Shown: positions 15,269 to 61,914 of the stretch, piece after piece
How the letters are laid out: each line of letters starts with the position of its first letter
How positions within the stretch are numbered: the stretch's first letter is position 1
NCBI GenBank assembly: GCA_037135035.1
Contig: JBAXLB010000002.1
Coordinates: 71,680 to 135,679 of the forward strand
From: Candidatus Adlerbacteria bacterium
GTDB lineage: Bacteria > Patescibacteriota > Minisyncoccia > Phycocordibacterales > SBAW01
DNA length: 64,000 nt
Reading direction: 5' to 3'
Notes under the pieces: model-generated
What the model was told of the DNA's origin: nothing
What the model saw: the letters and a program-made list of their open reading frames with translations, nothing else
Database searches by the model: none
Made by a program: the position numbers and the translations under genes

Positions 15269-18092
15269 CTATACCACGCTGTTTTCTTGCTATACTCTGT
15301 GCATGCAAACAGGACGGTCAATTGAGGTGGGAAAGGCGACTGATGCTGCACGTACAGAGCTGGAGAGTCTGCGCCAGCGTGCCAGCGAGCTTGAGGCAAA
15401 AATAAAAATTGAATCTGCCTCTCCGGCAGTTGAAATACAAAAACAGGCGGCTGTAGAAGCGGTTGGCGAGCAGTGGAAAAATACTGGGGCAACATCGCCA
15501 GCCGAAGCGCCGCGTGTGGCAGAACACCCGGAAGCTATTACGTTGCAACTTGAGCCCGAGCAGCACGACGAGCGCATGGGTGAGCTCATTCATATTTTGC
15601 AGGAACATGGCGTAACACGTGCTATTCAAGCAACAGAGAAAACGGGCAACCCACATTTGGTCGACGACTTTCACCGTATTTTGGTCGAATGGGTACGCGA
15701 AGGGCTGCCTGCCAAAGAAGTGTCGAGCAAAAAATATAAAGTCGCGCTTTCGATGGCGTTGTACGAAGTGACACTGCCGGGCCCGAATGCCGACAGTGAC
15801 AAACCAACTGACCCTGCAAAAACCATGCGCGACTTTATCTCCTTGATGGAGCAGTTTTACCGCGGCATGTTACAAATGGACACCAAACAGGGTGAATATT
15901 TTTCGTTCGAAATTGCAAACCCGGCAGGCGAGACGCATACCACCATGTATATTGCTGTGCCAAAAGCACGCAAAGCTATGTTTGAAAAACAGTTGCTGGG
16001 GCTGTACCCAACAGCCCGTCTTGTTGAACGGCATGACGACTACAACGCATTTGTCGACGGTGCAGAAACTGCAGCAGCAACAGCGCGCCTGCATGAGCGG
16101 GGCATATATTCGCTGCGGACGTCGGAGTCGTTTACCAACGACCCGCTCGACCTGTTGTTGAACGCGTTTTCGATGCTCGATAAAACAGGCGAAGGTGCTG
16201 CGGTGCAATTTGTCGTTTCCCCACGCGACCGGGGGTTAAACAAAGACTATCGCTGGGCACTCGAAAAAATACATCGGGGTGTGCCACTTGAACATGCAAC
16301 ACGGATATATAAAGGAGTGCCGAGGTTTTTCTACGATGTGTGGACCTTTTTTGTAGAACCAAAAAAATTGGACCAAGACGAGAGACTTAAACCCGACGAC
16401 GCGCGCCTAAAAAATATTGAACAAAAAATAGCAAGCCCAATTTTTTTGGCGGACATACGTCTTGTCGCGTCGGCCGCAACTAAAGAGCGTGCACAGGCAG
16501 TACTGCAAGACATTGAAGCACCGTTTCAGCAGTTTGCTGACACGGCAGGGAACAGTTTGGTATTTGATGCAGTGTCAGCGGGGAACATAAAAAACTTTGC
16601 GCGTGCATTTTCCTACCGCCTGCTCGACGAAGCAAAGGCATTGCCGCTTTCAGCTATGGAGTTGGCGACGCTTGCACACATGCCGGGGGCGTTGAGCAAA
16701 CTTGCAGCGCCCGACTTACGGCAAGAAAAAGCTGGCATTTCGGCCCCGCCAGCTAACTTGCCAAATGCGGGTGCAATGCTCGGTGTTAACAAATTCCGCG
16801 GGGCCACAAAAGAGGTGCGCATTGCGCCCGAAGACCGTTTGCGCCACCTGTACGTTATTGGCCAGACCGGTACAGGTAAGTCGGTATTGCTTAAAAATGT
16901 CATCATGCAAGACATAAAGTCGGGTGCTGGTGTCTGCATGATAGACCCGCACGGCTCCGACGTGTTGGATGTGCTTTCGGCTATACCACCTGAACGTATG
17001 GACGATGTTATTTATTTCGACCCAGGTTCTATGGAACGGCCAATAGGTCTGAATATGCTCGAGTTTGACCCCGCAAAGCCAGAACAAAAAACTCTTGTTG
17101 TGGACGAATTATTTGGCATATTTAAAAAACTCTTCGGCGCAGTGCCTGAAAGTATGGGGCCTGCATTCGAGCAATATTTTCGCAACTCTGCGTTGCTCGT
17201 GATGGAAGCACCAGAACTCGGCAGCACATTGCTCGACATTTCGCGTATTTTTGCCGACCCCGAGTTCCGTGCCCGCAAACTTGCTGCCTGCAAAAACCCT
17301 ATTGTGAAGCAGTTTTGGGAAGACATTGCTGCCAAGACAACCGGCGAGCAGGGCCTGGAAAACTACGGCCCCTATGTGACCAACAAGTTTGATATTTTTA
17401 CGACCAACGAGATTATGCGCCCTATCATTGCGCAGCAAAAGTCGGCGTTCAACTTTCGCGATATTATGGACAGCAAAAAGATTTTGCTGGTTAACCTTGC
17501 AAAAGGCCGCATTGGTGACATTAACGCAAACCTGCTCGGCTTGATAATCGTCGGTAAATTCTTAATAGCTGCACTTTCGCGTGCCGACTCTGTAGGTAAA
17601 GACTTGCCGCCCTACTATCTGCACATTGACGAGTTCCAAAACTTTACGACACCCTCAATTGCGACGATATTTTCGGAAGCGCGCAAATATAAACTCTCGC
17701 TCACAGTGGCGCACCAATTTATTGCCCAACTTTCGGAAGAAATTCGCGATGCGGTCTTTGGCAACGTTGGCTCTATATGCTCGTTCCGTGTAGGTGCTGC
17801 TGACGCAGAGTTTTTGGAAAAACAATTTGCCCCAACGTTTAAACAGAGCGACCTTATGAATGTCGACAACTGGAACGCATACGTGCGTTTGCTTGTTAAC
17901 GGCCGCCCCGCAACACCGTTTAACATCGAGACAGTACCTTTTGAAGGTAAGGGTATGGCTAACGCAGACAAAATGCGGGAACTTTCGGGCCTTAAATACG
18001 GCCGCCCACGTGCAGAAATTGAAGCCGAAATTGCCAAAAGTTTTAAAGGTTCCTCACAGGAGCCGGCAACGCTGGTAGGGAATGGACTCTAG
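15252..18092 (+). CDS. Large FtsK/HerA/VirB4-TraD-class P-loop ATPase with unassigned ~500-aa N-terminal region
   Basis: Walker A YVIGQTGTGKSVLLKN, Walker B/DExx YYLHIDEFQNF, C-terminal architecture like T4SS ATPases; no TM segments; alternative start ATG 15303. Confidence 0.6.
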   Translation: MLLKSNYTTLFSCYTLCMQTGRSIEVGKATDAARTELESLRQRASELEAKIKIESASPAVEIQKQAAVEAVGEQWKNTGATSPAEAPRVAEHPEAITLQLEPEQHDERMGELIHILQEHGVTRAIQATEKTGNPHLVDDFHRILVEWVREGLPAKEVSSKKYKVALSMALYEVTLPGPNADSDKPTDPAKTMRDFISLMEQFYRGMLQMDTKQGEYFSFEIANPAGETHTTMYIAVPKARKAMFEKQLLGLYPTARLVERHDDYNAFVDGAETAAATARLHERGIYSLRTSESFTNDPLDLLLNAFSMLDKTGEGAAVQFVVSPRDRGLNKDYRWALEKIHRGVPLEHATRIYKGVPRFFYDVWTFFVEPKKLDQDERLKPDDARLKNIEQKIASPIFLADIRLVASAATKERAQAVLQDIEAPFQQFADTAGNSLVFDAVSAGNIKNFARAFSYRLLDEAKALPLSAMELATLAHMPGALSKLAAPDLRQEKAGISAPPANLPNAGAMLGVNKFRGATKEVRIAPEDRLRHLYVIGQTGTGKSVLLKNVIMQDIKSGAGVCMIDPHGSDVLDVLSAIPPERMDDVIYFDPGSMERPIGLNMLEFDPAKPEQKTLVVDELFGIFKKLFGAVPESMGPAFEQYFRNSALLVMEAPELGSTLLDISRIFADPEFRARKLAACKNPIVKQFWEDIAAKTTGEQGLENYGPYVTNKFDIFTTNEIMRPIIAQQKSAFNFRDIMDSKKILLVNLAKGRIGDINANLLGLIIVGKFLIAALSRADSVGKDLPPYYLHIDEFQNFTTPSIATIFSEARKYKLSLTVAHQFIAQLSEEIRDAVFGNVGSICSFRVGAADAEFLEKQFAPTFKQSDLMNVDNWNAYVRLLVNGRPATPFNIETVPFEGKGMANADKMRELSGLKYGRPRAEIEAEIAKSFKGSSQEPATLVGNGL

Positions 18093-18811: not shown

Positions 18812-18884
18812 GCTCCCGTCGTTCAATGGATAGGACGTATCCTTGCGGAGGATATGATGTAGGTTCGATTCCTACCGGGAGCAC
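18812..18884 (+). tRNA. tRNA-Arg with apparent anticodon GCG
   Basis: Acceptor GCTCCCG/CGGGAGC, D-loop AATGGATAG, anticodon stem TATCC/GGATA with loop TTGCGGA, T-arm GGTTCGATTCC; paralog of tRNA-Arg(CCG) at 21602. Confidence 0.7.
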
Positions 18885-19153
18885 CTGGTAGAAAGGGCGT
18901 CAGAAAACCCTTTCGTGTTAAGGCAATTTCGTTCGAGGTTTTTTGTCACCTTTGAGAGTGCAGATTTTAGCTTGAAAAATAAGGATTGAAAGTTCGAATG
19001 TTCTGGCTGCTTGCTGTGGACAACGTGTTGATACCAAGCCTTGCTGCGGTTCATTGCGCGTTTAGTTTCCTATGATAGAGTCAACGTGTGCCTGTGGGCG
19101 CAAGCCCCGTTCAGCTAAGGATTTCCTAAGCTGAAGGCAGGCACGACAAAGGT

Positions 19154-26772: not shown

Positions 26773-27993
26773 CTATTTGTTCACAACAAAACGGAGCTGT
26801 TCAATATCAAAAGGTTCCAAATAGTATCCGACGTCGCGAAATTCCAGCCGCAATATGTCAGTTGTCTCGAGATTGTCAGGGTAAGGTAATTTTTCTTGAG
26901 CGTCTGCCAGGGCTTTCTGAACACCAGCGATTTCTAACCCCTGTTGCTGTGTGAACGCTACAAAATTTTTATATTCCTGTACGCTCTTTTTGTCGGCACC
27001 GACGACTGCGTGTATAGCTTGTATGGCAGCGTAGCTATGTCCTTTTGCAGCAAGAGTTTTTGAAAGGACGTGGTACGCAAAACTTTGCGACACTTGTTCG
27101 TCGAGGATTCCCTCCGCCTCTCTTTTCTCAGGTAAGCGTAGTTCGTTGTCACGGTCTAATTTTGCAATTTTTTCATAAAAAGGGTGTGGCATCGGTATGC
27201 GTTCTTCATCTAATGATATTTTGGTTATATCTTCAGCATATGCGTCTGAAACTCTGTGTCCGTATTCATGCGCGACTAGATGTTTGGTTACGATGTAAAT
27301 TGACTCGTCTATGCTCATTGAGATGCCAATCTTGCTGAGCTCGTCGCGTATTTTAGTGGCGCCATTTTGGATATGTTTGCCCCCGATATCAATAATGGCA
27401 GAAGGCGCCTCCGGGTCTTCGGGATTATGGAAGTACTTGTAGTCTAGATATCTGCCGTACCCTTTGTCTGCGTCGTACGAAAGTTTAAGCGGAGATAGAG
27501 ATTTTTCCTTTTCAAAAAAATCCGGAGGGTACAGATTAAGCTCTTTCATGTCGCTCATGACTTCGTCAAAAATATGTTGCGCAGACGCTTCCATTTTTTC
27601 AGAAGGAGGAAGGGGAGTGCGTTCAATTCGCGCATCTTTCTGCGCTTTCAACTTGTCAAACACAGGTTTATTTTTTTCGATAATACTTTTTAATTTTTCT
27701 GTATCGAAAGTATATTTCTTACGGGGACCTTCGAATTCTGAGTCGTCCTTTTCTTGTACGGAAATAGCTCCTTCAAAAAACAAATCTTTAATAACCCGTA
27801 ACTCAGGTTGACTCTCAACAGCCTCACCTGATTCAAGAGTAGACGTTGGTGCCGTTGCTGCAACGGGCTTTTCTTGAGTTTTTTCCTCAAGCTTCTCGTC
27901 GGCATGTGCAGGGAGTTGCGCGTGCTCCAGATCAAAACCAGGCTTCATGTCTTCGATTATAGCATTCGAGCGGAGAGGGTGAGATTCGGTCAC
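26773..27993 (-). CDS. Putative zinc metallopeptidase (HExxH) with acidic N-terminal region
   Basis: Single HEYGH motif (LVAHEYGHRV); remainder unassigned. Confidence 0.4.
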   Translation of the reverse strand: MTESHPLRSNAIIEDMKPGFDLEHAQLPAHADEKLEEKTQEKPVAATAPTSTLESGEAVESQPELRVIKDLFFEGAISVQEKDDSEFEGPRKKYTFDTEKLKSIIEKNKPVFDKLKAQKDARIERTPLPPSEKMEASAQHIFDEVMSDMKELNLYPPDFFEKEKSLSPLKLSYDADKGYGRYLDYKYFHNPEDPEAPSAIIDIGGKHIQNGATKIRDELSKIGISMSIDESIYIVTKHLVAHEYGHRVSDAYAEDITKISLDEERIPMPHPFYEKIAKLDRDNELRLPEKREAEGILDEQVSQSFAYHVLSKTLAAKGHSYAAIQAIHAVVGADKKSVQEYKNFVAFTQQQGLEIAGVQKALADAQEKLPYPDNLETTDILRLEFRDVGYYLEPFDIEQLRFVVNK

Positions 27994-50417: not shown

Positions 50418-52028
50418 ATGGTCCGGAATGATATTGAACAGGCAATACAAGGCGCACTGAAGGCTATGGGAGCCGGGGAAGTAGCTTTTGTGGTGGAGCG
50501 CCCTACTGACATGGCGCATGGCGACTATGCCACCAATGCAGCACTCGCGGCTGCTAAAATTTTAAAAAAGAATCCACGCGATGTCGCAGCAGAGCTGCAA
50601 GAAGCAGTAGGAAATATACAAGGTGTAGAAAAAGTAGAAGTTGCTGGCGCAGGTTTTATAAATTTTTATCTTTCAGCCGATGCACTTACTGAAGTTGTAC
50701 AGGAAGCGAACAAGGAAGGGTGGGGTACCAATGATTTGTATATAGGTAAAAAAGTATTGGTGGAATACACGAGCCCAAATTTATTTAAACCCCTGCATAT
50801 TGGAAATTTAATTGGTAATATTTTAGGAGAAAGCATCGCACGCTTATTCGAGACAAGCGGCGCAGATGTTAAGCGGCTAAACTATCCGTCTGATATTGGT
50901 CTTACTATTGCGAAAGGCGTATGGGGCCTACAAAAATTAGGTTTAAATCCTGAGATATTAAGCGAATTAGCAACAGCCTACGTTGCGGGAAATGAGGCAT
51001 ATGAAAGTGGAGTAGGAAAAGAAGCAATTGAAGAAATAAACCGTGCACTCTATGCAGATACAAACGCAGAATGGAGCTCACTACGTGCGCAGGGTATCGC
51101 GACATCTCTTAAACATTTGCATGAGTTGCTGGTACGGCTTGGTACAAAGGGTTTTGACGGAGAATTTTTTGAAAGCCAGTCGGGCCCGATTGGGCAGAAG
51201 TTAGTGAAAGAAAACGTTGGTGGTGTATTTGCCGAAAGCGAAGGAGCGATTGTGTACCACGGCGAACATACACGTGTGTTTTTGAATTCGCAAGGGCTGC
51301 CAACATATGAAGCAAAAGAAGTCGGGCTTTTTGAGTTGAAGTCGGGAGCCTATCCGACGTTTGATATTTCCATCACGGTAACAGGTAAAGAACAGACTGA
51401 TTTCTTTAGAATAGTATTTGACGCAATACGAAAACTTTTTCCGGGTAAGACGAATGGAAAAGATTTGATCCATATCCCAACAAGTTTTTTGAAATTGACT
51501 ACAGGCAAGATGTCGTCGCGGTTAGGTAATGTCATTACGGGGGAGTCGCTGCTCGCGGATTTAACCGATGCTGCTCGTGGTCGCGAAGATGTTGCTGTCG
51601 GGGCTTTAAAATTTACTGTGCTTAAAAGTGGAAGCGGTAAAGATATTTTATTTGATCCTGAAAAATCGCTGTCGCTCGAAGGTGACTCGGGTCCGTATGT
51701 GCAGTATGCACTTGTACGTGCTCGCGCACTTTTGCGGAAAGCCACTGAAGCGGAAGTGGTGCAAAAAGAAACTGAACCCAGTGAACTTGAGCGCTTGCTC
51801 GTACATTTCCCTGACGTAGTTGTGCGTGCGGCGCGGGACTTGGAGCCTCATCATGTGGTGACATATGTGACAGAGCTTGCCGCTGCGTTTAACAGTTGGT
51901 ACGCACAAGAGCGTTTGATAGTCGACGGAAAAGTCTCTGCCCACGCACTGGCGCTTGTTACTGCTGTTGAACACACGCTCCACAAAGGCCTGACTGTTTT
52001 GGGCATACCGGCACCCGAGGAAATGTAG
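50418..52028 (+). CDS. argS: Arginyl-tRNA synthetase
   Basis: HIGN motif (FKPLHIGNLIGN), Add-1 N-terminal domain, DALR anticodon-binding domain; start at MVRNDIEQ. Confidence 0.9.
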   Translation: MVRNDIEQAIQGALKAMGAGEVAFVVERPTDMAHGDYATNAALAAAKILKKNPRDVAAELQEAVGNIQGVEKVEVAGAGFINFYLSADALTEVVQEANKEGWGTNDLYIGKKVLVEYTSPNLFKPLHIGNLIGNILGESIARLFETSGADVKRLNYPSDIGLTIAKGVWGLQKLGLNPEILSELATAYVAGNEAYESGVGKEAIEEINRALYADTNAEWSSLRAQGIATSLKHLHELLVRLGTKGFDGEFFESQSGPIGQKLVKENVGGVFAESEGAIVYHGEHTRVFLNSQGLPTYEAKEVGLFELKSGAYPTFDISITVTGKEQTDFFRIVFDAIRKLFPGKTNGKDLIHIPTSFLKLTTGKMSSRLGNVITGESLLADLTDAARGREDVAVGALKFTVLKSGSGKDILFDPEKSLSLEGDSGPYVQYALVRARALLRKATEAEVVQKETEPSELERLLVHFPDVVVRAARDLEPHHVVTYVTELAAAFNSWYAQERLIVDGKVSAHALALVTAVEHTLHKGLTVLGIPAPEEM

Positions 52029-52067: not shown

Positions 52068-55000
52068 ATGGATGATTTGAAGCAGGGCGGGGAAGAGCTG
52101 CACCCAGAAGCGGTGCATAAACCAAAAAGTACTTTTGCCGTACGGGAGGAAAAGACTCTCGCGTTTTGGGAAGCACAGGACATATTTAAAAAATCGCTCG
52201 AGAAGCATGCGCCTAAGGGCGAGTTTGTTTTCTACGATGGTCCGCCGTTTGCAAACGGCTTACCTCACTATGGGCACTTGCTCCAAAGCACAATAAAAGA
52301 CGCCATACCTCGCTACCGCACGATGCGGGGGTACCGTGTGCCGCGCCGCTGGGGATGGGACTGCCACGGTCTACCGGTTGAAAACTTGGTAGAAAAAGAA
52401 TTGGGGTTTAAGTCTAAGCGCGACATTGAAGAGTTTGGCATTGCAAATTTCAACAAAGCTGCTCGAACAAGCATCATGAAAGATGTTGCGGACTGGAAAC
52501 GAATTATCCCACGCATCGGACGCTGGGCTGACATGGAGAACGACTACAAGACGATGGACTCGACCTATACCGAGTCTGTCTGGTGGGCGTTTAAAAATTT
52601 GCACAGTCGCGGACTTATTTACGAGGGCTTCAAGGGCATGCATTTTTGTCCTCGTTGTGGAACGACGCTTTCCAACAACGAAGTGGCCCAAGGCTACATG
52701 GACATTGAAGACATTGCGGTCACAGTAAAATTTCCACTTGTAGACGAACCGGAAACATCCATACTTATTTGGACCACCACTCCCTGGACCTTGCCGGGCA
52801 ACACTGCAGCTGCAGTAAACGCCGACGCTGTATATGTAAAAGTCCGCACAGACGAAGGCTTTGTTGTTGTTGCGAAAGAGCTTATGACAAAAGTGCTTGG
52901 CGAAGATGCAAAAATATTTGCCGAGATACTTGGAAAAGACCTGGTAGGTAAACGATACAAACCGCCATTTAGTTATTTCGAACATACGCTCCATAAACAT
53001 AAAAGCCACGCGTATAAAATATACGCCGCACCGTATGTGACGCTTGAAGACGGCACGGGCATTGTCCACCTTGCACCTGCCTACGGCGCAGAAGACTTGA
53101 TCTTTGCCCAGAAAGAAAAAATTCCGCTTATCCAACACGTCACTGACGAAGGTAAATTTATCGCAACGGTCACCGACTTTGTAGGGCTCTCGGTCAAACC
53201 AAAAGGTCGCCATATGGAAACGGATGCAAAGATTGTAGAGAACCTGCACGCCCGTGGGTTGCTTTTCCATCAGGAAAAAATAACTCACTCATACCCGCAC
53301 TGCTGGCGCTGCGACACACCGCTCCTCAACTGGGCTGCAAATTCCTGGTTTGTAAGTGTTTCAAAAATAAAACCAAAATTGTTGGCACAAAATAAAAAAG
53401 TTTCTTGGGTGCCGAAAAGCACGGGAGAAGGGCGTTTCCAAAAAGGTCTTGAAAGTGCGCCTGACTGGGCAATTTCCCGCAGCCGTTACTGGGGCGCACC
53501 GCTACCAGTTTGGCGCCACAGCAAAACCAAAGAATTGAAAGTGATGGGCTCTGTTGAAGAGCTGTTACAGGTTGTGCGCCGCTCAGGTAACAAATATTTT
53601 GTAATGCGCCACGGCGAAGCACAGTCAAACGTCGACAATGTGGAAGATATCGAAGGTGACCCAAATAACCACCTCACCAAGAAAGGTAAGGCACAGGTGT
53701 TGTCTGCTGCACGAGCACTTGCTTCAAAAAAAATAGACATGATAGTTACGTCGCCTTTTGTGCGGACTAAAGAAACAGCGCACCTCTTGGCGAACGAGTT
53801 TGGCCTGCCTGAGTCTGCAGTTATGGTGGACACTCGTTTGGGAGAAGTAGCCCATGTAACACCTGAACTTTGTCGCAATGTAGGCGAATTTATTTTTGAA
53901 ATTGAGAGGCGTTACAGCGGCAAAAACATACTTGTAGTTTCGCACGGCGGCGCTATTTGGGCATTGCAGCAAGTAGTTGGGCGCCAACCGACGACAGGTT
54001 TTTACCGCACAGCTATGCTCGGTAATGCAGAGTGCGCAGAACTACCGTTTGTGCCGTTCCCACATAACGAACAGTACGAACTTGACCTGCACCGGCCGTT
54101 TATTGACGACATCCTGCTTGGGGACTCTTTGGCGGGGGAGTGGAAGCGTGCCCCCGATGTGTTTGATTGTTGGTTTGAGTCGGGTTCGATGCCGTACGGG
54201 TCTAACCACTATCCGTTTCAAAAAAACAATTTCAATCCGAAAAAAATGTTTGGATTGATGCCAAAGGGATACCCAGCCGACTTTATTGCAGAAGCTGTTG
54301 ACCAGACACGTGGCTGGTTCTACTCGCTTATTGTGCTCGGGACGGCGCTCTTTGGGAGGTCGCCATACAAAAATGTTATTACGACAGGGCTCATTAATGC
54401 GAGCGACGGTAAGAAGATGAGTAAACGATTGAAAAATTATCCTGACCCGCTTGATCTTATCGACAAATACGGAGTTGACTCGCTCCGCTATTACATACTG
54501 TCGTCACAACTTGTCCGCGGTGAAGACCTGAGTTTTAAAGAACAAGGGGTTGAAGAAGTTTCAAAAAAACTCCTGATGCGTTTGGACAACGTCGTGTCGT
54601 TCTATGAACTGTATGCAAACAGCACGACCCGCTCGAATGAAAGTACACACGCACTCGACCGGTGGATTTTGTCGCGGTTTGGGGAGTTGACCACACAAAC
54701 CACTGCAGGGTTTGAAAGTTATGAGCTTGATGCGGCGACACGCCCGCTCGCATTGTTTATCGACGACCTCTCTACGTGGTACCTGCGCCGTTCTCGTGAC
54801 CGTTTTAAAACAGATGGGGAAGGGAAGGTGCAGGCGCTCGCTACATTGCGCTTTGTGTTACACACGCTTGCACACACTATGGCGCCCGTGATGCCGTTTT
54901 TTGCCGACGAGTTGTTTGGCCGTATGAAGGAAGAAGGTGACCCAGAGAGTGTCCATTTGTCGGGTTGGCCTGCCGCAGAAAAAGTAGATACAGCGCTGCT

Positions 55001-55418
55001 TGCCGACATGGTCCGCGTGCGCGAGGTGGCGTCGAAGGGGTTGGAGTTGCGCGAGTCTGCGGGTATAAAAATTCGCCAGCCTCTTGCTGCGCTTGTGGCA
55101 AAACAACTTCCCAACGACGACGGCCTACGCGCACTTATTAAAGACGAATTAAATGTAAAAAAAGTAGTAGAAGATGTCGCACAAGTAAACGATGTTTCGC
55201 TCGACACAGAACTGACTCCAGAATTAAAGGAGGAGGGTGTCGTACGCGACTTGGCGCGCCGCATACAAGAATGGCGCAAAGAGCAAAAACTAACTATTGC
55301 CGACAGGCCCGTCTGCACACTTCTAGTCTCTGCGGAAGAAAAAATAGTTGCTGAAAAAAATAAAACAGCTCTTATGGCCCAGACTGGCCTAGAGGACCTG
55401 CAGTTGGTGGTGAAGTAA
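52068..55418 (+). CDS. ileS: Isoleucyl-tRNA synthetase (type 2) carrying an inserted histidine-phosphatase domain
   Basis: HYGH, WDCHGLPVE, editing domain, RSRYWGAPLPVW, DVFDCWFESGS, KMSKR; ~170-aa RHG/SHGG phosphatase-fold insertion at 53571..54078. Confidence 0.9.
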   Translation: MDDLKQGGEELHPEAVHKPKSTFAVREEKTLAFWEAQDIFKKSLEKHAPKGEFVFYDGPPFANGLPHYGHLLQSTIKDAIPRYRTMRGYRVPRRWGWDCHGLPVENLVEKELGFKSKRDIEEFGIANFNKAARTSIMKDVADWKRIIPRIGRWADMENDYKTMDSTYTESVWWAFKNLHSRGLIYEGFKGMHFCPRCGTTLSNNEVAQGYMDIEDIAVTVKFPLVDEPETSILIWTTTPWTLPGNTAAAVNADAVYVKVRTDEGFVVVAKELMTKVLGEDAKIFAEILGKDLVGKRYKPPFSYFEHTLHKHKSHAYKIYAAPYVTLEDGTGIVHLAPAYGAEDLIFAQKEKIPLIQHVTDEGKFIATVTDFVGLSVKPKGRHMETDAKIVENLHARGLLFHQEKITHSYPHCWRCDTPLLNWAANSWFVSVSKIKPKLLAQNKKVSWVPKSTGEGRFQKGLESAPDWAISRSRYWGAPLPVWRHSKTKELKVMGSVEELLQVVRRSGNKYFVMRHGEAQSNVDNVEDIEGDPNNHLTKKGKAQVLSAARALASKKIDMIVTSPFVRTKETAHLLANEFGLPESAVMVDTRLGEVAHVTPELCRNVGEFIFEIERRYSGKNILVVSHGGAIWALQQVVGRQPTTGFYRTAMLGNAECAELPFVPFPHNEQYELDLHRPFIDDILLGDSLAGEWKRAPDVFDCWFESGSMPYGSNHYPFQKNNFNPKKMFGLMPKGYPADFIAEAVDQTRGWFYSLIVLGTALFGRSPYKNVITTGLINASDGKKMSKRLKNYPDPLDLIDKYGVDSLRYYILSSQLVRGEDLSFKEQGVEEVSKKLLMRLDNVVSFYELYANSTTRSNESTHALDRWILSRFGELTTQTTAGFESYELDAATRPLALFIDDLSTWYLRRSRDRFKTDGEGKVQALATLRFVLHTLAHTMAPVMPFFADELFGRMKEEGDPESVHLSGWPAAEKVDTALLADMVRVREVASKGLELRESAGIKIRQPLAALVAKQLPNDDGLRALIKDELNVKKVVEDVAQVNDVSLDTELTPELKEEGVVRDLARRIQEWRKEQKLTIADRPVCTLLVSAEEKIVAEKNKTALMAQTGLEDLQLVVK

Positions 55419-57972: not shown

Positions 57973-59355
57973 ATGTCAGACAAAGAACAAAACCTAATGG
58001 AAAAAATAGTTTCGCTGTGCAAGCGGCGGAGCTTTGTTTTTCCTGCGAGCGAAATCTACGGAGGCCTCGCTGGTTTTTGGGACTACGGAGCGTTCGGTGT
58101 AGAGCTTGCCAACAATCTAAAACAGCTGTGGTGGAAAAAAGTTGTGCAGGAACAAGACAACATCTTTGGTATCGACGGTGCAATTATTCAGAACCCGAAA
58201 CTCTGGGAGGCGAGCGGACATGTTGCTGGGTTCACTGACCCGTTGGTTGACTGTAAAAATTGTGGTTCGCGTTTGCGTGCCGACCATTTAGCGGATACTG
58301 ACTCGTCGGATATTGCGGAATTGACAGAACTTTTGAAAGACACGCCGTGCCCGGTGTGTGGTAAAAAAGCACTCACGGCTCCGCGGAAATACAACATGAT
58401 GATGAAAACCTGGGTTGGGCCCGTGGAAGACGACTCGGCTATTGCGTACTTGCGGCCGGAAACTGCAGGTTCTATCTTTGTAAATTACAAAAATATTTTT
58501 GACACGACGTCTGCAAAAGTGCCGTTTGGTATCGCACAAATAGGTAAAGCATTTCGAAATGAAATAAGCCCACGCGACTTTATTTTCCGTGTGCGCGAGC
58601 TTGAACAGATGGAGATGCAGTATTTTATCAAGCCAGACATGCAGCAGGAAGTGTACGAACACTGGAGAAAGTTTGCGTGGGAATTTTTAACCGAGACACT
58701 CGACATCAGTGAAAGTAATTTACAGTGGCATGAACATGCAGAAAATGAACGTGCACACTACGCGGCAGCTGCACATGATATTTATTTTAAATTCCCACAA
58801 GGTTTTAAAGAGCTGTGGGGCACGCACAACAGGACAGACTTTGACTTGAAAGCGCACGCGGCACACAGCGGGCAAGACCTTTCGTATTTTGAAGAAAGCA
58901 CCGGGGAGCGTTTTACTCCGTACGTTATAGAATCTTCGGTCGGTGTGGGGCGTATGTTTTTGGCAGTCCTTACAGATGCCTATACTGAAGATGAGCTTGG
59001 GGGAGAGACACGTGTGTACCTGAAACTTAAACCATCAGTTGCGCCTGTTAAAGCGGCCGTGTTTCCACTGCTTAAAAACAAGCCGGAGTTGGTAGAAAAA
59101 GCACGCGAAATTTACCTTGCACTTAAAAAGCAGGTGCCGCAAATTGTCTGGGACGACAACGGCAATATCGGTAAACGTTATCGCCGCCAGGACGAAATTG
59201 GTACCCCGTGGTGCATTACTGTCGACTTTGACACATTGGGAGAAAAACCAGAACTTAAAGACACTGTTACCTTGCGCCACCGCGACACGGGCGAGCAAGA
59301 GCGTATTGCTATTGCAGACGTAGCCGATTTTATAAAAACACGCATCGCCGCGTAA
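57973..59355 (+). CDS. glyQS: Glycyl-tRNA synthetase, alpha2 dimeric type
   Basis: FVFPASEIYGGLAGFWDYGAFG class II motif 1 region; eukaryote/archaeal-like single-chain GlyRS. Confidence 0.85.
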   Translation: MSDKEQNLMEKIVSLCKRRSFVFPASEIYGGLAGFWDYGAFGVELANNLKQLWWKKVVQEQDNIFGIDGAIIQNPKLWEASGHVAGFTDPLVDCKNCGSRLRADHLADTDSSDIAELTELLKDTPCPVCGKKALTAPRKYNMMMKTWVGPVEDDSAIAYLRPETAGSIFVNYKNIFDTTSAKVPFGIAQIGKAFRNEISPRDFIFRVRELEQMEMQYFIKPDMQQEVYEHWRKFAWEFLTETLDISESNLQWHEHAENERAHYAAAAHDIYFKFPQGFKELWGTHNRTDFDLKAHAAHSGQDLSYFEESTGERFTPYVIESSVGVGRMFLAVLTDAYTEDELGGETRVYLKLKPSVAPVKAAVFPLLKNKPELVEKAREIYLALKKQVPQIVWDDNGNIGKRYRRQDEIGTPWCITVDFDTLGEKPELKDTVTLRHRDTGEQERIAIADVADFIKTRIAA

Positions 59356-60471: not shown

Positions 60472-61914
60472 ATGCAAGAGCCAAAACGCTTTTATATAAC
60501 GACCCCCATTTTTTATCCAAATGCAAAATTGCACTTGGGCCACGCCTATACAACAACACTTTCTGACATTCTTGCCCGGTATCATCGCCTTATAGGGGAC
60601 AAAACTTACTTTCTGACCGGTTCAGACGAAAACACGCAAAAGATGGTCGACTCGGCAGTAAAAGAGGGGAAAGAGCCGCTGATATTTTTGGATGGTATTG
60701 TTGAAAATTTCGCCTCCCTCTATAAAGGTCTTGATATTTCGTATGACCAATTTATCCGCACCACCGACCAGAAAAAGCATTGGCCGGGTGCCCAAGCGCT
60801 ATGGCAAAAACTTGTTGCTGCAGGGGACATATATAAAAAAGAATACGAAGGCCTATATTGCGTTGGGCACGAAGCATTTATCACTGAAAAAGACTTGGTT
60901 GACGGTAAATGCCCCGACCACGGCACGGTGCCGGAGCTAATTAAAGAAGAAAACTATTTCTTCCGTCTTTCAAAATATGCGCCGCAGATAGAAGAGAAAA
61001 TAAAAAGTGATGAGTTCCGTATTGTGCCCGAAAGTCGCAAACATGAAATCCTTTCATTTATAAAAAACGAAGGACTTGAAGATGTAAGTTTTTCGCGACC
61101 GCGCAAAGCCGCTTGGCCTGCAGGTTTGGGTATCCCTGTGCCCGGCGACGACTCCCAGGTAATGTACGTGTGGTGTGACGCACTTTCAAACTACATTACG
61201 GCACTTGGTTACGGGCAGGACGAAATGCTGTACAAAGAATTTTGGCCTGCAAACGTGCATGTTATAGGCAAAGATATTTTGCGTTTCCATGCGGCAATTT
61301 GGCCGGGGATGCTTCTATCGGCAGGGATTCCACTACCTAAGGCTCTCTTGGTACATGGGTTTATCACCTCGGGCGGAAAAAAAATGTCCAAAACACTCGG
61401 CAATATTATAGACCCCGAAGAGCTCATAGAAGAATATGGCAGCGAAGCCGTGCGGTACTTTTTGGCGCGCCATATAACACCGTTTGAAGACGGCGACATA
61501 ACCAGAGAGAGCTTTAAAGAAATCTACAATGCGAACTTGGCAAACGGGCTGGGTAACTTGGTTGCCCGTGTGATGAAGCTTGCAGAGGTCCACCTCCATG
61601 GAGACATACAAATCACCCAGCCAGTGTATTCAAACGAATATTTGGAAGCGTTTGAAAAATTTGATATCAACAAAGCCATTGACCACATATTTAAACGAAT
61701 AGGAGTGTTGGATCAGAGGATAACAAAAGAAGAGCCTTTTAAGTTGGTTAAAACAGACCCTGCGGCCGGTACAAAACTTATTCTCGAATTGCTTCTCGAA
61801 TTACGTGTCGTCGCAATTTTGCTCATTCCTTTTTTGCCAGAGACAAGTAAAAAAATCATAGAAGCAGTTGATGCCCGTAAAAAACCAGAAAACCTGTTCG
61901 CCCGCAAAGATTAA
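60472..61914 (+). CDS. metG: Methionyl-tRNA synthetase (core only, no C-terminal tRNA-binding domain)
   Basis: HLGHAYTT (HIGH), KMSKTLGN (KMSKS), 480 aa. Confidence 0.9.
   Translation: MQEPKRFYITTPIFYPNAKLHLGHAYTTTLSDILARYHRLIGDKTYFLTGSDENTQKMVDSAVKEGKEPLIFLDGIVENFASLYKGLDISYDQFIRTTDQKKHWPGAQALWQKLVAAGDIYKKEYEGLYCVGHEAFITEKDLVDGKCPDHGTVPELIKEENYFFRLSKYAPQIEEKIKSDEFRIVPESRKHEILSFIKNEGLEDVSFSRPRKAAWPAGLGIPVPGDDSQVMYVWCDALSNYITALGYGQDEMLYKEFWPANVHVIGKDILRFHAAIWPGMLLSAGIPLPKALLVHGFITSGGKKMSKTLGNIIDPEELIEEYGSEAVRYFLARHITPFEDGDITRESFKEIYNANLANGLGNLVARVMKLAEVHLHGDIQITQPVYSNEYLEAFEKFDINKAIDHIFKRIGVLDQRITKEEPFKLVKTDPAAGTKLILELLLELRVVAILLIPFLPETSKKIIEAVDARKKPENLFARKD

Follow-up and report, generated by a model that had tools for sequence, protein, structure and literature searches.

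The isoleucyl-tRNA synthetase (IleRS) gene of a Candidatus Adlerbacteria genome was found to contain a complete branch-1 histidine phosphatase domain, which was nested in the middle of connective peptide CP3 and for which phosphatase activity is predicted. The gene lies in a stretch of 64,000 nucleotides that was analysed at its full length (hereafter the window). As judged from its homologues, the domain has been fixed across a bacterial class and is subject, as is the whole enzyme, to purifying selection; it appears to be no passenger. The best explanation, in which about even confidence is placed, is that the domain is a catalytically intact, nested phosphatase partner of class I synthetases that may act on a small diffusible phosphate compound. 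It was read as a functional phosphatase partner because of its conservation, the selection acting on it, its argS/ileS neighbourhood, its multiple sites and the intactness of all its copies.

Host Enzyme

A 1116-aa ileS ORF had been proposed by an earlier sequence-only reading of the window, and it was found at 52068..55418 on the forward strand, in full agreement with that description. The limits of the IleRS domains used here were those of PMC7955072. The parts of the gene are as follows.

52068..55418, forward strand: ileS, type-2 IleRS with nested phosphatase domain (1116 aa plus stop; TIGR00392)
52068..53570, forward strand: IleRS residues 1-501 (Pfam tRNA-synt_1 over 30-503; aligned to ScIleRS 9-491), comprising the first half of the Rossmann fold, the CP core, the CP1 editing domain, CP2 and the CP2-3 linker (DWAISRSRYWG), and ending in the first hairpin and helix of CP3
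52266-52277, forward strand: HIGH motif H67-Y-G-H70, in the part formed by residues 1-501
54079..54656, forward strand: IleRS residues 671-863 (aligned to ScIleRS from residue 498 onward), comprising the second half of CP3 (ELDLHRPFID), the second half of the Rossmann fold (DVFDCWFESGS, DQTRGWF), the KMSKR loop and the stem-contact fold
54414-54428, forward strand: KMSKR loop, residues 783-787 (K783, M784, S785 and K786 invariant)
54657..55415, forward strand: anticodon-binding domain (Pfam 864-1007) and type-2 C-terminal DUF5915 (1043-1106)

The whole protein scored 882.9 bits against the NCBIfam equivalog TIGR00392 (isoleucine--tRNA ligase; cutoff 621.4), and the match fell into two stretches, one on each side of the insert. 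In the Pfam search of the whole protein, tRNA-synt_1 was split in two pieces (441 bits) and was accompanied by Anticodon_1, DUF5915 and His_Phos_1; the C-terminal part scored 94.9 bits with PF08264 and 44.2 bits with PF19302. The best PDB matches of the ORF were eukaryote-type IleRS and IleRS2. The scores were 685-698 bits for IleRS2 and yeast IleRS versus approximately 303 bits for IleRS1 (8c9e, 1ffy), which bore out the earlier assignment of the host to type 2, the eukaryote-like form known as the mupirocin-resistant type. Type-2 or eukaryote-like enzymes as a group (S. cerevisiae, 7D5C/8WND; Priestia megaterium IleRS2, 8C8U; T. thermophilus, 1ILE) scored 670-698 bits and had the same order outside the insert, i.e., HIGH, CP1 editing, CP2, CP3, KMSKS, anticodon-binding and DUF5915.

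The class I signatures P66-H67-Y-G69-H70 and K783-M-S-K786-R were invariant in 72 homologues. The editing motifs W235-TTT-P-W240-T (WTTTPWT) and G329-T-G-I-V-H334-L-A-P (GTGIVHLAP) were also invariant; the CP1 editing domain was present, and its region matched the isolated editing-domain structures 1wk8 and 1wny. Because all synthetic and editing motifs appeared intact, the ORF was taken as the housekeeping IleRS of the cell, as judged within the 64-kb window. The plasmid-borne resistance enzymes MupA and MupB were considered and rejected, with 640-694 bits against 'exception' cutoffs of 1900.

Inserted Phosphatase Domain

The insert and its predicted functional residues are located as follows.

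53571..54078, forward strand: inserted histidine phosphatase domain (His_Phos_1, PF00300, PGAM fold) in a short 'cap-less' form, residues 502-670
53607..53615, forward strand: RHG motif R514-H515-G516 (codons cgc cac ggc), with H515 as the predicted phospho-accepting nucleophile
53763..53765, forward strand: R566, second phosphate-pocket arginine, in the motif S562-P563-x-x-R566 (100% conserved; invariant in alignment A1)
53844..53846, forward strand: E593, predicted general acid/base, in the motif D588-x-R590-L-x-E593 (97% conserved)
53943..53945, forward strand: H626, second active-site histidine, in S625-H626-G627 (99% conserved)
54048..54068, forward strand: C-terminal junction motif F661-V-P-F-P665-H666-N667, specific to the inserted form

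The alignment to the IleRS structures 8wnd and 7d5c broke at query residue 502 (chain residue 491) and resumed at query residue 672 (chain residue 498). Since the solved chains pass from 491 to 498 at this break, the canonical linker has 6 residues, where the window protein has approximately 170. The linker had 9 residues in L085, the closest insert-less relative, in agreement with the short linker expected by the earlier reading. The insertion point was in the middle of CP3, approximately 25 residues after the CP2-3 linker, which forms part of the wall of the pocket that receives the CCA end of the tRNA.

Against a gathering score of 21.7 for PF00300, the whole protein reached 78.8 bits, and the 169 aa of the insert, when excised, reached 86.6 bits (E=2.3e-24). 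The profile search proposed earlier for the insert was thereby carried out with a positive result, and the claim of a complete histidine phosphatase block at 53571-54078 was upheld, with all catalytic residues and the three quoted motifs in place. The alternative of a known IleRS subdomain with spurious similarity failed, because the score was far above the Pfam threshold and the fold matched His_Phos_1. The AF2 model of the insert had a pLDDT of 87.4 and a pTM of 0.85; the pTM of the full-length model was only 0.63. In the Foldseek search with the insert model, 288 PDB chains were matched at E<=0.001, and all of the 50 listed were His_Phos_1 members, the neighbours being GpgP, RosC, CobC, PhoE and phosphoserine phosphatase. 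No second copy of the phosphatase domain was found elsewhere in the 64-kb window.

The branch-1 catalytic core (R514, H515, R566, H626 and E593) was complete. Among the 120 homologues, R514 and H515 were conserved in 100% and G516 in 97%; the core as a whole was conserved at 97-100%, versus a mean consensus frequency of only 0.63 for the domain. E593 is presumably the acid/base residue by analogy with E89 of E. coli dPGM and E83 of PhoE. In the proposed mechanism, H515 would attack a phosphate ester held by R514, R566 and H626, the leaving group would be protonated by E593, and the phospho-histidine intermediate would then be hydrolysed.

Accessory domains of synthetases are often non-catalytic, and the insert could be conceived as a structural spacer or as a tRNA- or phosphate-binding surface in which the chemistry is irrelevant. 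No specific point in favour of such a module emerged. It is highly improbable in view of the contrast between the core residues and the domain mean, the retention of the catalytic residues in every copy of multi-copy proteins and the neutral charge of the domain. A generic RNA-binding role was likewise rejected on the net charge, which was approximately 0.

At the C-terminal junction, F661 and P665 were conserved in 100%, H666 in 99% and N667 in 97%. The motif was missing from the free-standing homologues, which stop just past the last strand. A cap segment of approximately 28-30 residues was present in 76 of the 120 homologues and missing from the window domain and 43 others (44/120). The insert scored below the cutoff of every NCBIfam equivalog. 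The candidates rejected in this way were dPGM (dPGM_arch, 48-53 bits versus 225; pgm_1, 22 versus 81.7; the cap segment is deleted in the window form), SixA (TIGR00249, 43-47.1 bits versus 74.5; the likeness is limited to small size and the lack of a cap) and the alpha-ribazole phosphatase CobC (TIGR03162, 40-47 bits versus 162.9).

Occurrence, Selection and Integrity of the Locus

The survey of related genomes suggested in the sequence-only reading revealed the same insertion widely. PF00300 was carried by all 120 closest homologues (60-100% identity), and the domain was inside ileS in 80 of 80 fetched loci, in the order N-HP-C1(-C2) and in one ORF in 79 of them. At least 525 species-representative genomes of Paceibacteria (CPR/Patescibacteria) encoded a relative, a count that was obtained with 9 close sequences and is a lower bound biased to close relatives. 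The dN/dS values were approximately 0.07-0.09 for the insert versus 0.03-0.13 for the synthetase body.

The reading frame was unbroken across both junctions. An identical 1116-aa protein was found on 4 contigs from separate assemblies, and NCBI has an entry for the exact protein too, from a 327-kb contig under the name Ca. Adlerbacteria. Furthermore, a 495-kb Adlerbacteria contig from Lac Pavin (L005) contained a 99% match to the insert. The GC content was 0.47-0.50 in the insert versus 0.45-0.54 in the flanks, with no GC break. No flanking repeats were found at the insert apart from short A-rich chance repeats, and the protein had no Hint or homing-endonuclease Pfam match that would indicate an intein.

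An artefact, i.e., an assembly chimera, frameshifted neighbouring genes or an intein-like or mobile insertion, can be regarded as practically excluded, because the identical protein occurs in separate assemblies and 79 of the 80 species-representative loci are one continuous ORF. The earlier statement that the frame is intact and the gene no chimera was thus confirmed, also by the same architecture in related loci. In some related assemblies, ileS was broken into 3-4 ORFs, as an artefact would have it; however, these cases all came from one assembly series (ERZ250395xx), and the order of the pieces was unchanged. A split gene had been suspected when the first homology search, with the insert and its flanks, gave only proteins of <420 aa. 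These matches were fragments on short contigs or the ileS genes in 3-4 ORFs of that series, probably through indel errors, and the best 'stand-alone' match (P0003) was such an ileS fragment.

Other Insertion Sites and Free-Standing Homologues

The same domain was found in IleRS at three different sites (A, B and C) or more, in one or two copies. Sites A and B were in CP2/CP3 and the Rossmann region, and site C was at the start of the anticodon-binding domain. IleRS with two phosphatase domains was found on six contigs of up to 1.06 Mb. Some ValRS also carried the domain, at the loop homologous to IleRS site B. Every full copy, at any site in IleRS, ValRS and the tandem proteins, kept the catalytic residues, including E593 and H626. 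The neighbour-joining tree of the phosphatase domains was star-like and gave no information on the number of insertion events or on the donor.

In the window, one synthetase gene directly precedes ileS:

50418..52028, forward strand: argS (arginyl-tRNA synthetase), directly upstream of ileS (ORF; Pfam Arg_tRNA_synt_N/tRNA-synt_1d/DALR_1 for the same gene in L003)

The closest free-standing homologues of the phosphatase were located between argS and ileS, in relatives that have no insert in their IleRS (L085, L089, L090, L091 and L088). The free-standing homologue adjoined an insert-less ileS and/or argS in 5 of 6 informative contexts, and the argS-phosphatase-ileS arrangement was found across two divergent IleRS subtypes. 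A more distant free-standing relative (L093) had no link to any synthetase gene. The selfish domain insertion considered in the sequence-only reading is unlikely in view of the purifying selection, the invariant catalytic residues and the free-standing homologue in the argS/ileS neighbourhood. A fusion of the phosphatase to TsaC (YrdC) also exists. It was given little weight as a third adenylate-forming partner because TsaC of CPR is fused to many unrelated domains, which include MGMT, TruB, NUDIX, 2H phosphoesterase and GNAT.

These data also bear on whether the domain has any part in aminoacylation. An unrelated housekeeping phosphatase, e.g., of nucleotide or sugar-phosphate metabolism, could ride on an essential gene, and adjacency and fusion would then be products of the compaction of operons and the neutral gain of domains that accompany streamlining in CPR genomes. 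The variable position and copy number of the domain, the many fusions of TsaC, the metabolic phosphatases among the fold neighbours and the distant relative without a synthetase neighbour are consistent with such a passenger role. However, the domain was captured recurrently by class Ia synthetases (IleRS at three sites or more, and ValRS) among the best 150 cluster representatives, which is unlikely by chance. Moreover, nesting in a loop of the catalytic domain is structurally costlier than terminal fusion, the almost invariant junction motifs suggest a fixed orientation, and the argS-phosphatase-ileS order was kept across divergent subtypes. An unrelated housekeeping function was considered quite unlikely. 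CPR proteins are promiscuous in their fusions, as exemplified by TsaC, and the present fusion may therefore provide co-expression with no mechanistic coupling.

Candidate Substrates

The least certain part of the proposal concerns the role. The phosphatase may serve the aminoacylation machinery by dephosphorylating a small diffusible molecule connected with the turnover of ATP to AMP + PPi by class I synthetases; this molecule could be a nucleotide or another phosphorylated by-product or inhibitor. The sequence-only reading had suggested tRNA 2',3'-cyclic or 3'-phosphate ends, aminoacyl-adenylate or a nucleotide alarmone, which are to be taken as candidate substrates. The fusion would provide stoichiometric co-expression and local action. 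A pyrophosphatase role was retained as a sub-hypothesis only, and the literature searched gave no indication that inorganic pyrophosphatase is missing from CPR.

A small diffusible phosphate compound was favoured over a tRNA end or a phosphoprotein because the domain occurs at variable positions and in variable copy number, one of the sites being on the anticodon-binding side and far from the acceptor end, because the specificity 'cap' can be lost, because the nearest folds are small-molecule phosphatases and because the domain is not basic. Some observations count against this explanation. The insert was only approximately 20% identical to any solved phosphatase, and most sites were in CP2/CP3 and the Rossmann region near the acceptor-end channel, which would fit a tRNA-end substrate too.

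Alternatively, the nested phosphatase could act directly on the aminoacylation machinery, by clearing an acceptor-end phosphate before charging or an inhibitory phosphate on the active-site loop of the synthetase. Such direct action, taken as a whole, was judged rather unlikely.

In the first form, a 3'-phosphate, a 2',3'-cyclic phosphate or another terminal phosphate would be stripped from acceptor ends, so that damaged or processed tRNA would become chargeable and a repair or quality-control step would be built into the synthetase. The first ValRS site, like sites A and B, is beside the CCA-end pocket, the partners are tRNA-handling enzymes (IleRS and ValRS, with argS as a neighbour), and the end of a polymer could enter the phosphatase pocket, which is open and has no cap. 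The best NCBIfam match of the insert was the phosphatase half of a bifunctional RNase H/acid phosphatase. Furthermore, broad-specificity branch-1 relatives dephosphorylate nucleic-acid ends and ATP (PMC2737285), because of which the fold leaves a macromolecular substrate possible. However, site C is distant in sequence from the region that binds the acceptor end, the domain is neutral and not basic, and the free-standing homologues presumably do the same job without placement on the synthetase. We know of no His_Phos_1 enzyme that is a dedicated tRNA-end phosphatase, and none was found in the literature, which also counts against a tRNA-end substrate. Overall, a tRNA-end phosphatase was thought unlikely.

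In the second form, the domain would be a cis-acting protein phosphatase, i.e., a built-in antidote that reverses inhibitory phosphorylation of the synthetase, for example at the KMSKS loop. Toxin kinases of the HipA type phosphorylate GluRS and TrpRS, and toxin kinases target the active-site loops of class I synthetases. Members that act on proteins, such as SixA, typically have an open active site with no cap, and the minimal form of the insert resembles SixA and PGAM5. The fold matches included 3o0t (PGAM5) and 3f2i (alr0221, a Nostoc protein of 162-164 residues that we take to be SixA-like); SixA was among the NCBIfam matches with 47 bits, and most insertion sites were close to the active-site entrance. 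However, no kinase partner was found in any neighbourhood examined, the SixA cutoff was missed (47.1 versus 74.5), most family members kept the cap, and the free-standing form would need to act in trans. A phosphoprotein target in cis was thus held to be very unlikely, and the small diffusible compound was kept as the favoured substrate.

Comparison With Known Systems

No IleRS carrying a phosphatase was found among the solved structures matched in the PDB or the enzymes catalogued in AARS Online. A precedent for an IleRS with an additional enzyme domain is the 'exception' family ileS_w_GNAT (NCBIfam NF040702); its extra domain is GNAT (N-acetyltransferase) and not His_Phos_1, and the window protein, with 360 bits versus 1999, is no member. 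The CP1 editing domain of class Ia synthetases (IleRS, ValRS and LeuRS) is likewise a hydrolytic domain nested in the Rossmann fold via a connective peptide, and it is to our knowledge the only well-understood second active site inserted in these enzymes. CP1 is universal and hydrolyses mis-acylated tRNA or adenylate esters, whereas the window insert has a phosphatase fold, is located in CP3 and occurs in one CPR class only.

In the bifunctional RNase H/acid phosphatase of the M. tuberculosis Rv2228c type (NF005567), a CobC-like His_Phos_1 domain is fused to a nucleic-acid enzyme. The excised insert scored 53 bits with this family (cutoff 326). The Rv2228c type is an end-to-end fusion with another partner enzyme, whereas the window domain is nested. 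The small-molecule enzymes PhoE/YhfR (1H2E), GpgP Rv2419c (4QIH), RosC (9EMU), CobC (6E4B) and phosphoserine phosphatase (4IJ6) share the fold and catalytic residues of the insert (Foldseek probability 1.00, TMq 0.65-0.76, identity approximately 20%). They have a cap segment that shapes specificity; in contrast, the window domain has no cap and is embedded in a synthetase.

Significance

Few enzymes have been studied as thoroughly as aminoacyl-tRNA synthetases, for which detailed catalogues of accessory domains exist. No description of a synthetase with a histidine phosphatase domain was found in the searchable literature or AARS Online. The architecture, which the sequence-only reading had called unfamiliar, is therefore undescribed as far as that search extends; it is not rare, being the norm in a bacterial class and already present in public databases. 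Such proteins are annotated in NCBI only as 'class I tRNA ligase family protein', and because of this name the housekeeping IleRS of hundreds of species is under-annotated.

What is new is a phosphatase, predicted to be catalytically intact, that is nested in the catalytic domain of a synthetase and absent from the accessory-domain catalogue. The domain is kept across a bacterial class, IleRS and ValRS have acquired it repeatedly, and it is located beside argS and ileS when free-standing. If the direct action on the aminoacylation machinery were true, an undescribed Paceibacteria class of bifunctional synthetase-phosphatases would exist. In addition to its sites for synthesis and editing, a class Ia synthetase would then have a third catalytic site, which would add a new level of quality control, for tRNA or for the synthetase, or of toxin resistance. 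A phosphatase that targets tRNA ends or its own synthetase would represent a new form of quality control or of protection against toxins. Should its target belong to the aminoacylation cycle, a need would come to light that other bacteria satisfy in another way or leave unmet, and this would bear on how the ultra-small symbiotic CPR cells run translation.

Identification of the nested phosphatase domain

The isoleucyl-tRNA synthetase (IleRS) of the window was confirmed to contain a nested histidine-phosphatase domain. The relevant features of the gene are as follows.

Features of the ileS gene
52068-55418, + strand, ileS ORF, 1116 aa, continuous
53571-54078, + strand, His_Phos_1 insert, 169 residues (PF00300)
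53607-53615, + strand, R514-H515-G516, codons cgc cac ggc
54048-54068, + strand, F661...N667 junction, read from the DNA

The class I synthetase catalytic domain was recovered in two Pfam pieces, with His_Phos_1 (PF00300) between them. With a gathering score of 21.7 as the threshold, PF00300 matched the whole protein at 78.8 bits and the 169 residues taken alone at 86.6 bits (E = 2.3e-24). The phosphatase insert proposed in the sequence-only reading was thus borne out. The NCBIfam identity of the host was isoleucine--tRNA ligase (TIGR00392, 882.9 bits vs a cutoff of 621.4). Its top solved-structure matches were eukaryote-type IleRS and bacterial IleRS2 (685-698 bits), whereas IleRS1 reached ~303 bits, in agreement with the type-2 host described earlier. 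The structure alignment broke at query 502 (chain 491) and restarted at query 672 (chain 498). Hence, canonical IleRS has six residues where the window IleRS has about 170, which is the short linker that had been expected. The HIGH, KMSKS and editing motifs were all kept in the synthetase, as judged from conservation among homologues.

The insert is not an artefact. Both junctions were in-frame at the DNA level, and the identical 1116-aa protein occurred on four contigs, each from a separate assembly; the earlier statement that the frame is intact and the gene no assembly chimera therefore holds. The same protein is present in an NCBI record on a 327-kb contig named Ca. Adlerbacteria, and a 495-kb Lac Pavin Adlerbacteria contig (L005) gave a 99% match to the insert. 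There was no GC discontinuity across the insert and its flanks, no flanking repeats were found, and Pfam detected no intein-type domain in the protein. A split gene had first been suggested by short matches, which were fragments or came from one assembly series (ERZ250395xx) in which ileS is broken into 3-4 ORFs, probably by indel errors.

Distribution and selection

PF00300 was present in every one of the 120 best homologues of full length (1096-1240 aa, 60-100% identity). A species-level scan (one genome each) showed that at least 525 genomes encode a relative of the insert; the figure is a minimum, as the scan relied on just two peptide patterns. Eighty loci were returned, and these covered Adlerbacteria, Nomurabacteria, Zambryskibacteria, Taylorbacteria, Kaiserbacteria, Campbellbacteria and other Paceibacteria/Patescibacteria, including the complete genome CP011215.1. 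The domain lay between the N-terminal and C-terminal IleRS parts in 80 of these 80 loci and in a single ORF in 79. Moreover, when 1.84 billion cluster representatives were searched exhaustively with only the insert as query, 204 matches were obtained at E <= 1e-10, the top of which were mostly IleRS with the domain at about residue 500. The structural interpretation in the sequence-only reading is supported. The window protein and its relatives are named 'class I tRNA ligase family protein' or 'isoleucyl-tRNA synthetase' at NCBI. The window IleRS lies above the ileS equivalog cutoff, yet carries only the former name. The insert presumably blocks the specific ileS name, in which case IleRS would be under-annotated in hundreds of genomes of Patescibacteria (CPR).

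Among the 120 homologues, R514, H515, S562, R566 and R590 were conserved at 100%, N521, D588 and H626 at 99%, and G516 and E593 at 97%; the mean consensus frequency over the phosphatase domain was only 0.63. The junctions S506-G-N508-x-Y510 and F661-x-P-x-P665-H-N667 were near-invariant in the same set. Compared with the two closest relatives, the insert had a dN/dS of 0.07-0.09 and the synthetase parts one of 0.03-0.13; both ranges are rough because dS is near saturation.

Structure of the insert

In yeast IleRS, connective peptide 3 (CP3) covers residues 459-526, and the CP2-3 linker ARDWNVSRNRYWG contributes to the binding pocket for the CCA end of the tRNA (PMC7955072). With the insertion point at yeast 491-498, the insert is placed mid-CP3, about 25 residues past this linker. 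In the whole-protein AlphaFold model the insert was predicted to be folded confidently (pLDDT mostly 85-96), and the overall confidence was moderate (mean pLDDT 78.8, pTM 0.63). Modelled alone, the insert gave a pLDDT of 87.4 and a pTM of 0.85. Its nearest solved folds were small-molecule phosphatases (GpgP Rv2419c, RosC, a riboflavin-pathway phosphatase, phosphoserine phosphatase, CobC and PhoE), all at about 20% identity. PGAM5 and 3f2i, a small Nostoc protein that we take to be SixA-like, were lower among the matches, also at about 20%. The insert reached none of the NCBIfam equivalog cutoffs for dPGM, SixA, CobC, PspA and RNase H/acid phosphatase, which indicates an uncharacterised subfamily.

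A short form of the domain (165-170 residues) was found in 44 of the 120 homologues, including that of the window, and a further segment of ~28-30 residues was kept in the other 76. This segment is the specificity 'cap', GGE motif included, and is missing from the window protein around positions 53844-53880 (residues ~593-604). The cap dimorphism may mark a change of substrate range within the clade. The cap-less form has an open pocket, with which a protein phosphatase that has the synthetase as its target may be consistent.

Free-standing homologues beside argS and ileS

Genuine free-standing homologues, for example in Ca. Staskawiczbacteria, were 185-205 aa long, started a few residues ahead of the RHG strand and lacked the PFPHN junction. 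The phosphatase gene was linked to argS and/or ileS in five of six informative contexts, with one locus (L092) left out as too short. At L085 and L089, argS, the phosphatase gene and ileS followed in order with gaps of 1-4 nt; at L090 the phosphatase gene adjoined ileS, with argS 1.6 kb upstream; at L091 it lay 5 nt from argS, followed by a convergent ileS; and at L088 it adjoined argS at a contig end. A more distant relative (L093) was unlinked to synthetase genes. At the linked loci ileS had no insert: the L085 IleRS, of the same lineage as the window IleRS (N-model score 683), has a 9-residue linker at the insertion point, and the L091 match ran uninterrupted over it. The IleRS of L089 and L090 were more divergent and of the zinc-knuckle type. 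The neighbourhood in the window is the same: argS lies just before ileS, and recO lies downstream. The link between phosphatase and synthetase genes probably predates the fusion. In one relative of the window locus (L004:1937-4022), which belongs to the ERZ250395xx assembly series, argS and ileS are separated by a Cas1 gene and an IS605 OrfB/TnpB-like gene.

Recurrent recruitment into synthetases

Insertion sites in the longer matches, which are proteins outside the window, were located by local profile mapping. Eight IleRS of 1400-1470 aa contained two phosphatase domains, also by Pfam, placed either side by side in CP3 or at two separate sites. Tandem copies occupied site A, the window's own site, in P0291, P0244 and P0270; site B, the loop from DxWFxSG to the DQTRGWF strand, was used in P0185 and P0204; and site C, where the catalytic core meets the anticodon-binding domain, in P0273, P0222, P0280 and P0185. 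The last of these proteins was present on six contigs, the largest of 1.06 Mb. The domain also occurred in ValRS (P0156, P0283 and P0417); two of the cluster representatives proved to be ValRS rather than IleRS (NF004349, 411 and 581 bits). P0156 carries four copies. The full-length P0417 (1140 aa) has one, between DTWFSSG...GWP and FHPTSV..GYDILFFW, a loop that is homologous with site B of IleRS. The Arg-His/Arg/Glu/His set was kept in every full copy at all sites in both enzymes.

Fusions of TsaC(YrdC) to the phosphatase formed a small clade and were given little weight, as TsaC in CPR has a wide range of unrelated fusion partners. In Patescibacteria, threonylcarbamoyl-AMP synthase (TsaC/YrdC) is a hub of such fusions (P0194, P0298-P0300, L087 and further matches): its majority C-terminal partner is O6-methylguanine methyltransferase, and others are TruB, 2H/cyclic phosphodiesterase, NUDIX, AAG glycosylase, GNAT and, in the small clade, histidine phosphatase.

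Proposed function

These comparisons show that a branch-1 histidine phosphatase, predicted to be catalytically competent, accompanies class I synthetases in Paceibacteria as a conserved partner, both genetically and physically. The chemistry of the family is established (Rigden 2008, cited in PMC2737285). By analogy with the family, the substrate would phosphorylate H515, the phosphate would be held by R514, R566 and H626 with E593 as the acid/base, and the phospho-H515 intermediate would then be hydrolysed.

The favoured substrate is a small diffusible phosphorylated compound tied to the ATP-consuming aminoacylation cycle, possibly a nucleotide or another by-product or inhibitor. Several features favour this reading. 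The domain differs between proteins in its position and in its number of copies, and one site is remote in the chain from the acceptor-binding region. The free-standing form presumably performs an identical task, many homologues do without the cap, the nearest folds are those of metabolite phosphatases, and the net charge of the domain is about zero. Alternatively, the domain may be a tRNA-end phosphatase, since most insertion sites border the CCA channel and relatives of broad specificity take the terminal phosphate off nucleic acids (PMC2737285). It may also be a phosphatase whose function has nothing to do with the synthetase and which only shares its expression. A third catalytic site working directly on tRNA ends or on the synthetase is considered unlikely.

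Other features of the window

The 64-kb window contains five synthetase genes, of which four fall in a 12-kb stretch.

Synthetase and tRNA genes
1639-2850, TyrRS/TrpRS-type gene
50418-52028, ArgRS gene (argS)
52068-55418, IleRS gene (ileS)
57973-59355, tRNA-synt_2b/HGTP_anticodon synthetase, read as GlyRS
60472-61911, MetRS (short, 480 aa)
18812-18885, tRNA-Arg, anticodon GCG

In most bacteria the corresponding arginine tRNA has ACG, modified to ICG, instead of GCG. For the ORF pair at 15303-18089 and 26776-27948, the first (929 aa) had only a marginal HerA/DUF87 match and the second (391 aa) had no Pfam match.

Relation to known systems

Host and insert are each members of well-known families, IleRS and PF00300; the protein did not belong to dPGM, SixA, CobC, MupA/B or GNAT-carrying IleRS. 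The combination of a synthetase with a histidine phosphatase is absent from the AARS Online table of synthetase domain superfamilies, and a full-text literature search found no description of it; the sequences are already public. Three systems come closest as conceptual precedents: the CP1 editing domain, which is a hydrolase nested in the same catalytic domain, the IleRS with a GNAT domain (NCBIfam NF040702), and the mycobacterial fusion of RNase H with an acid phosphatase. The phosphatase-carrying IleRS is real, widespread, under selection and open to experiment.
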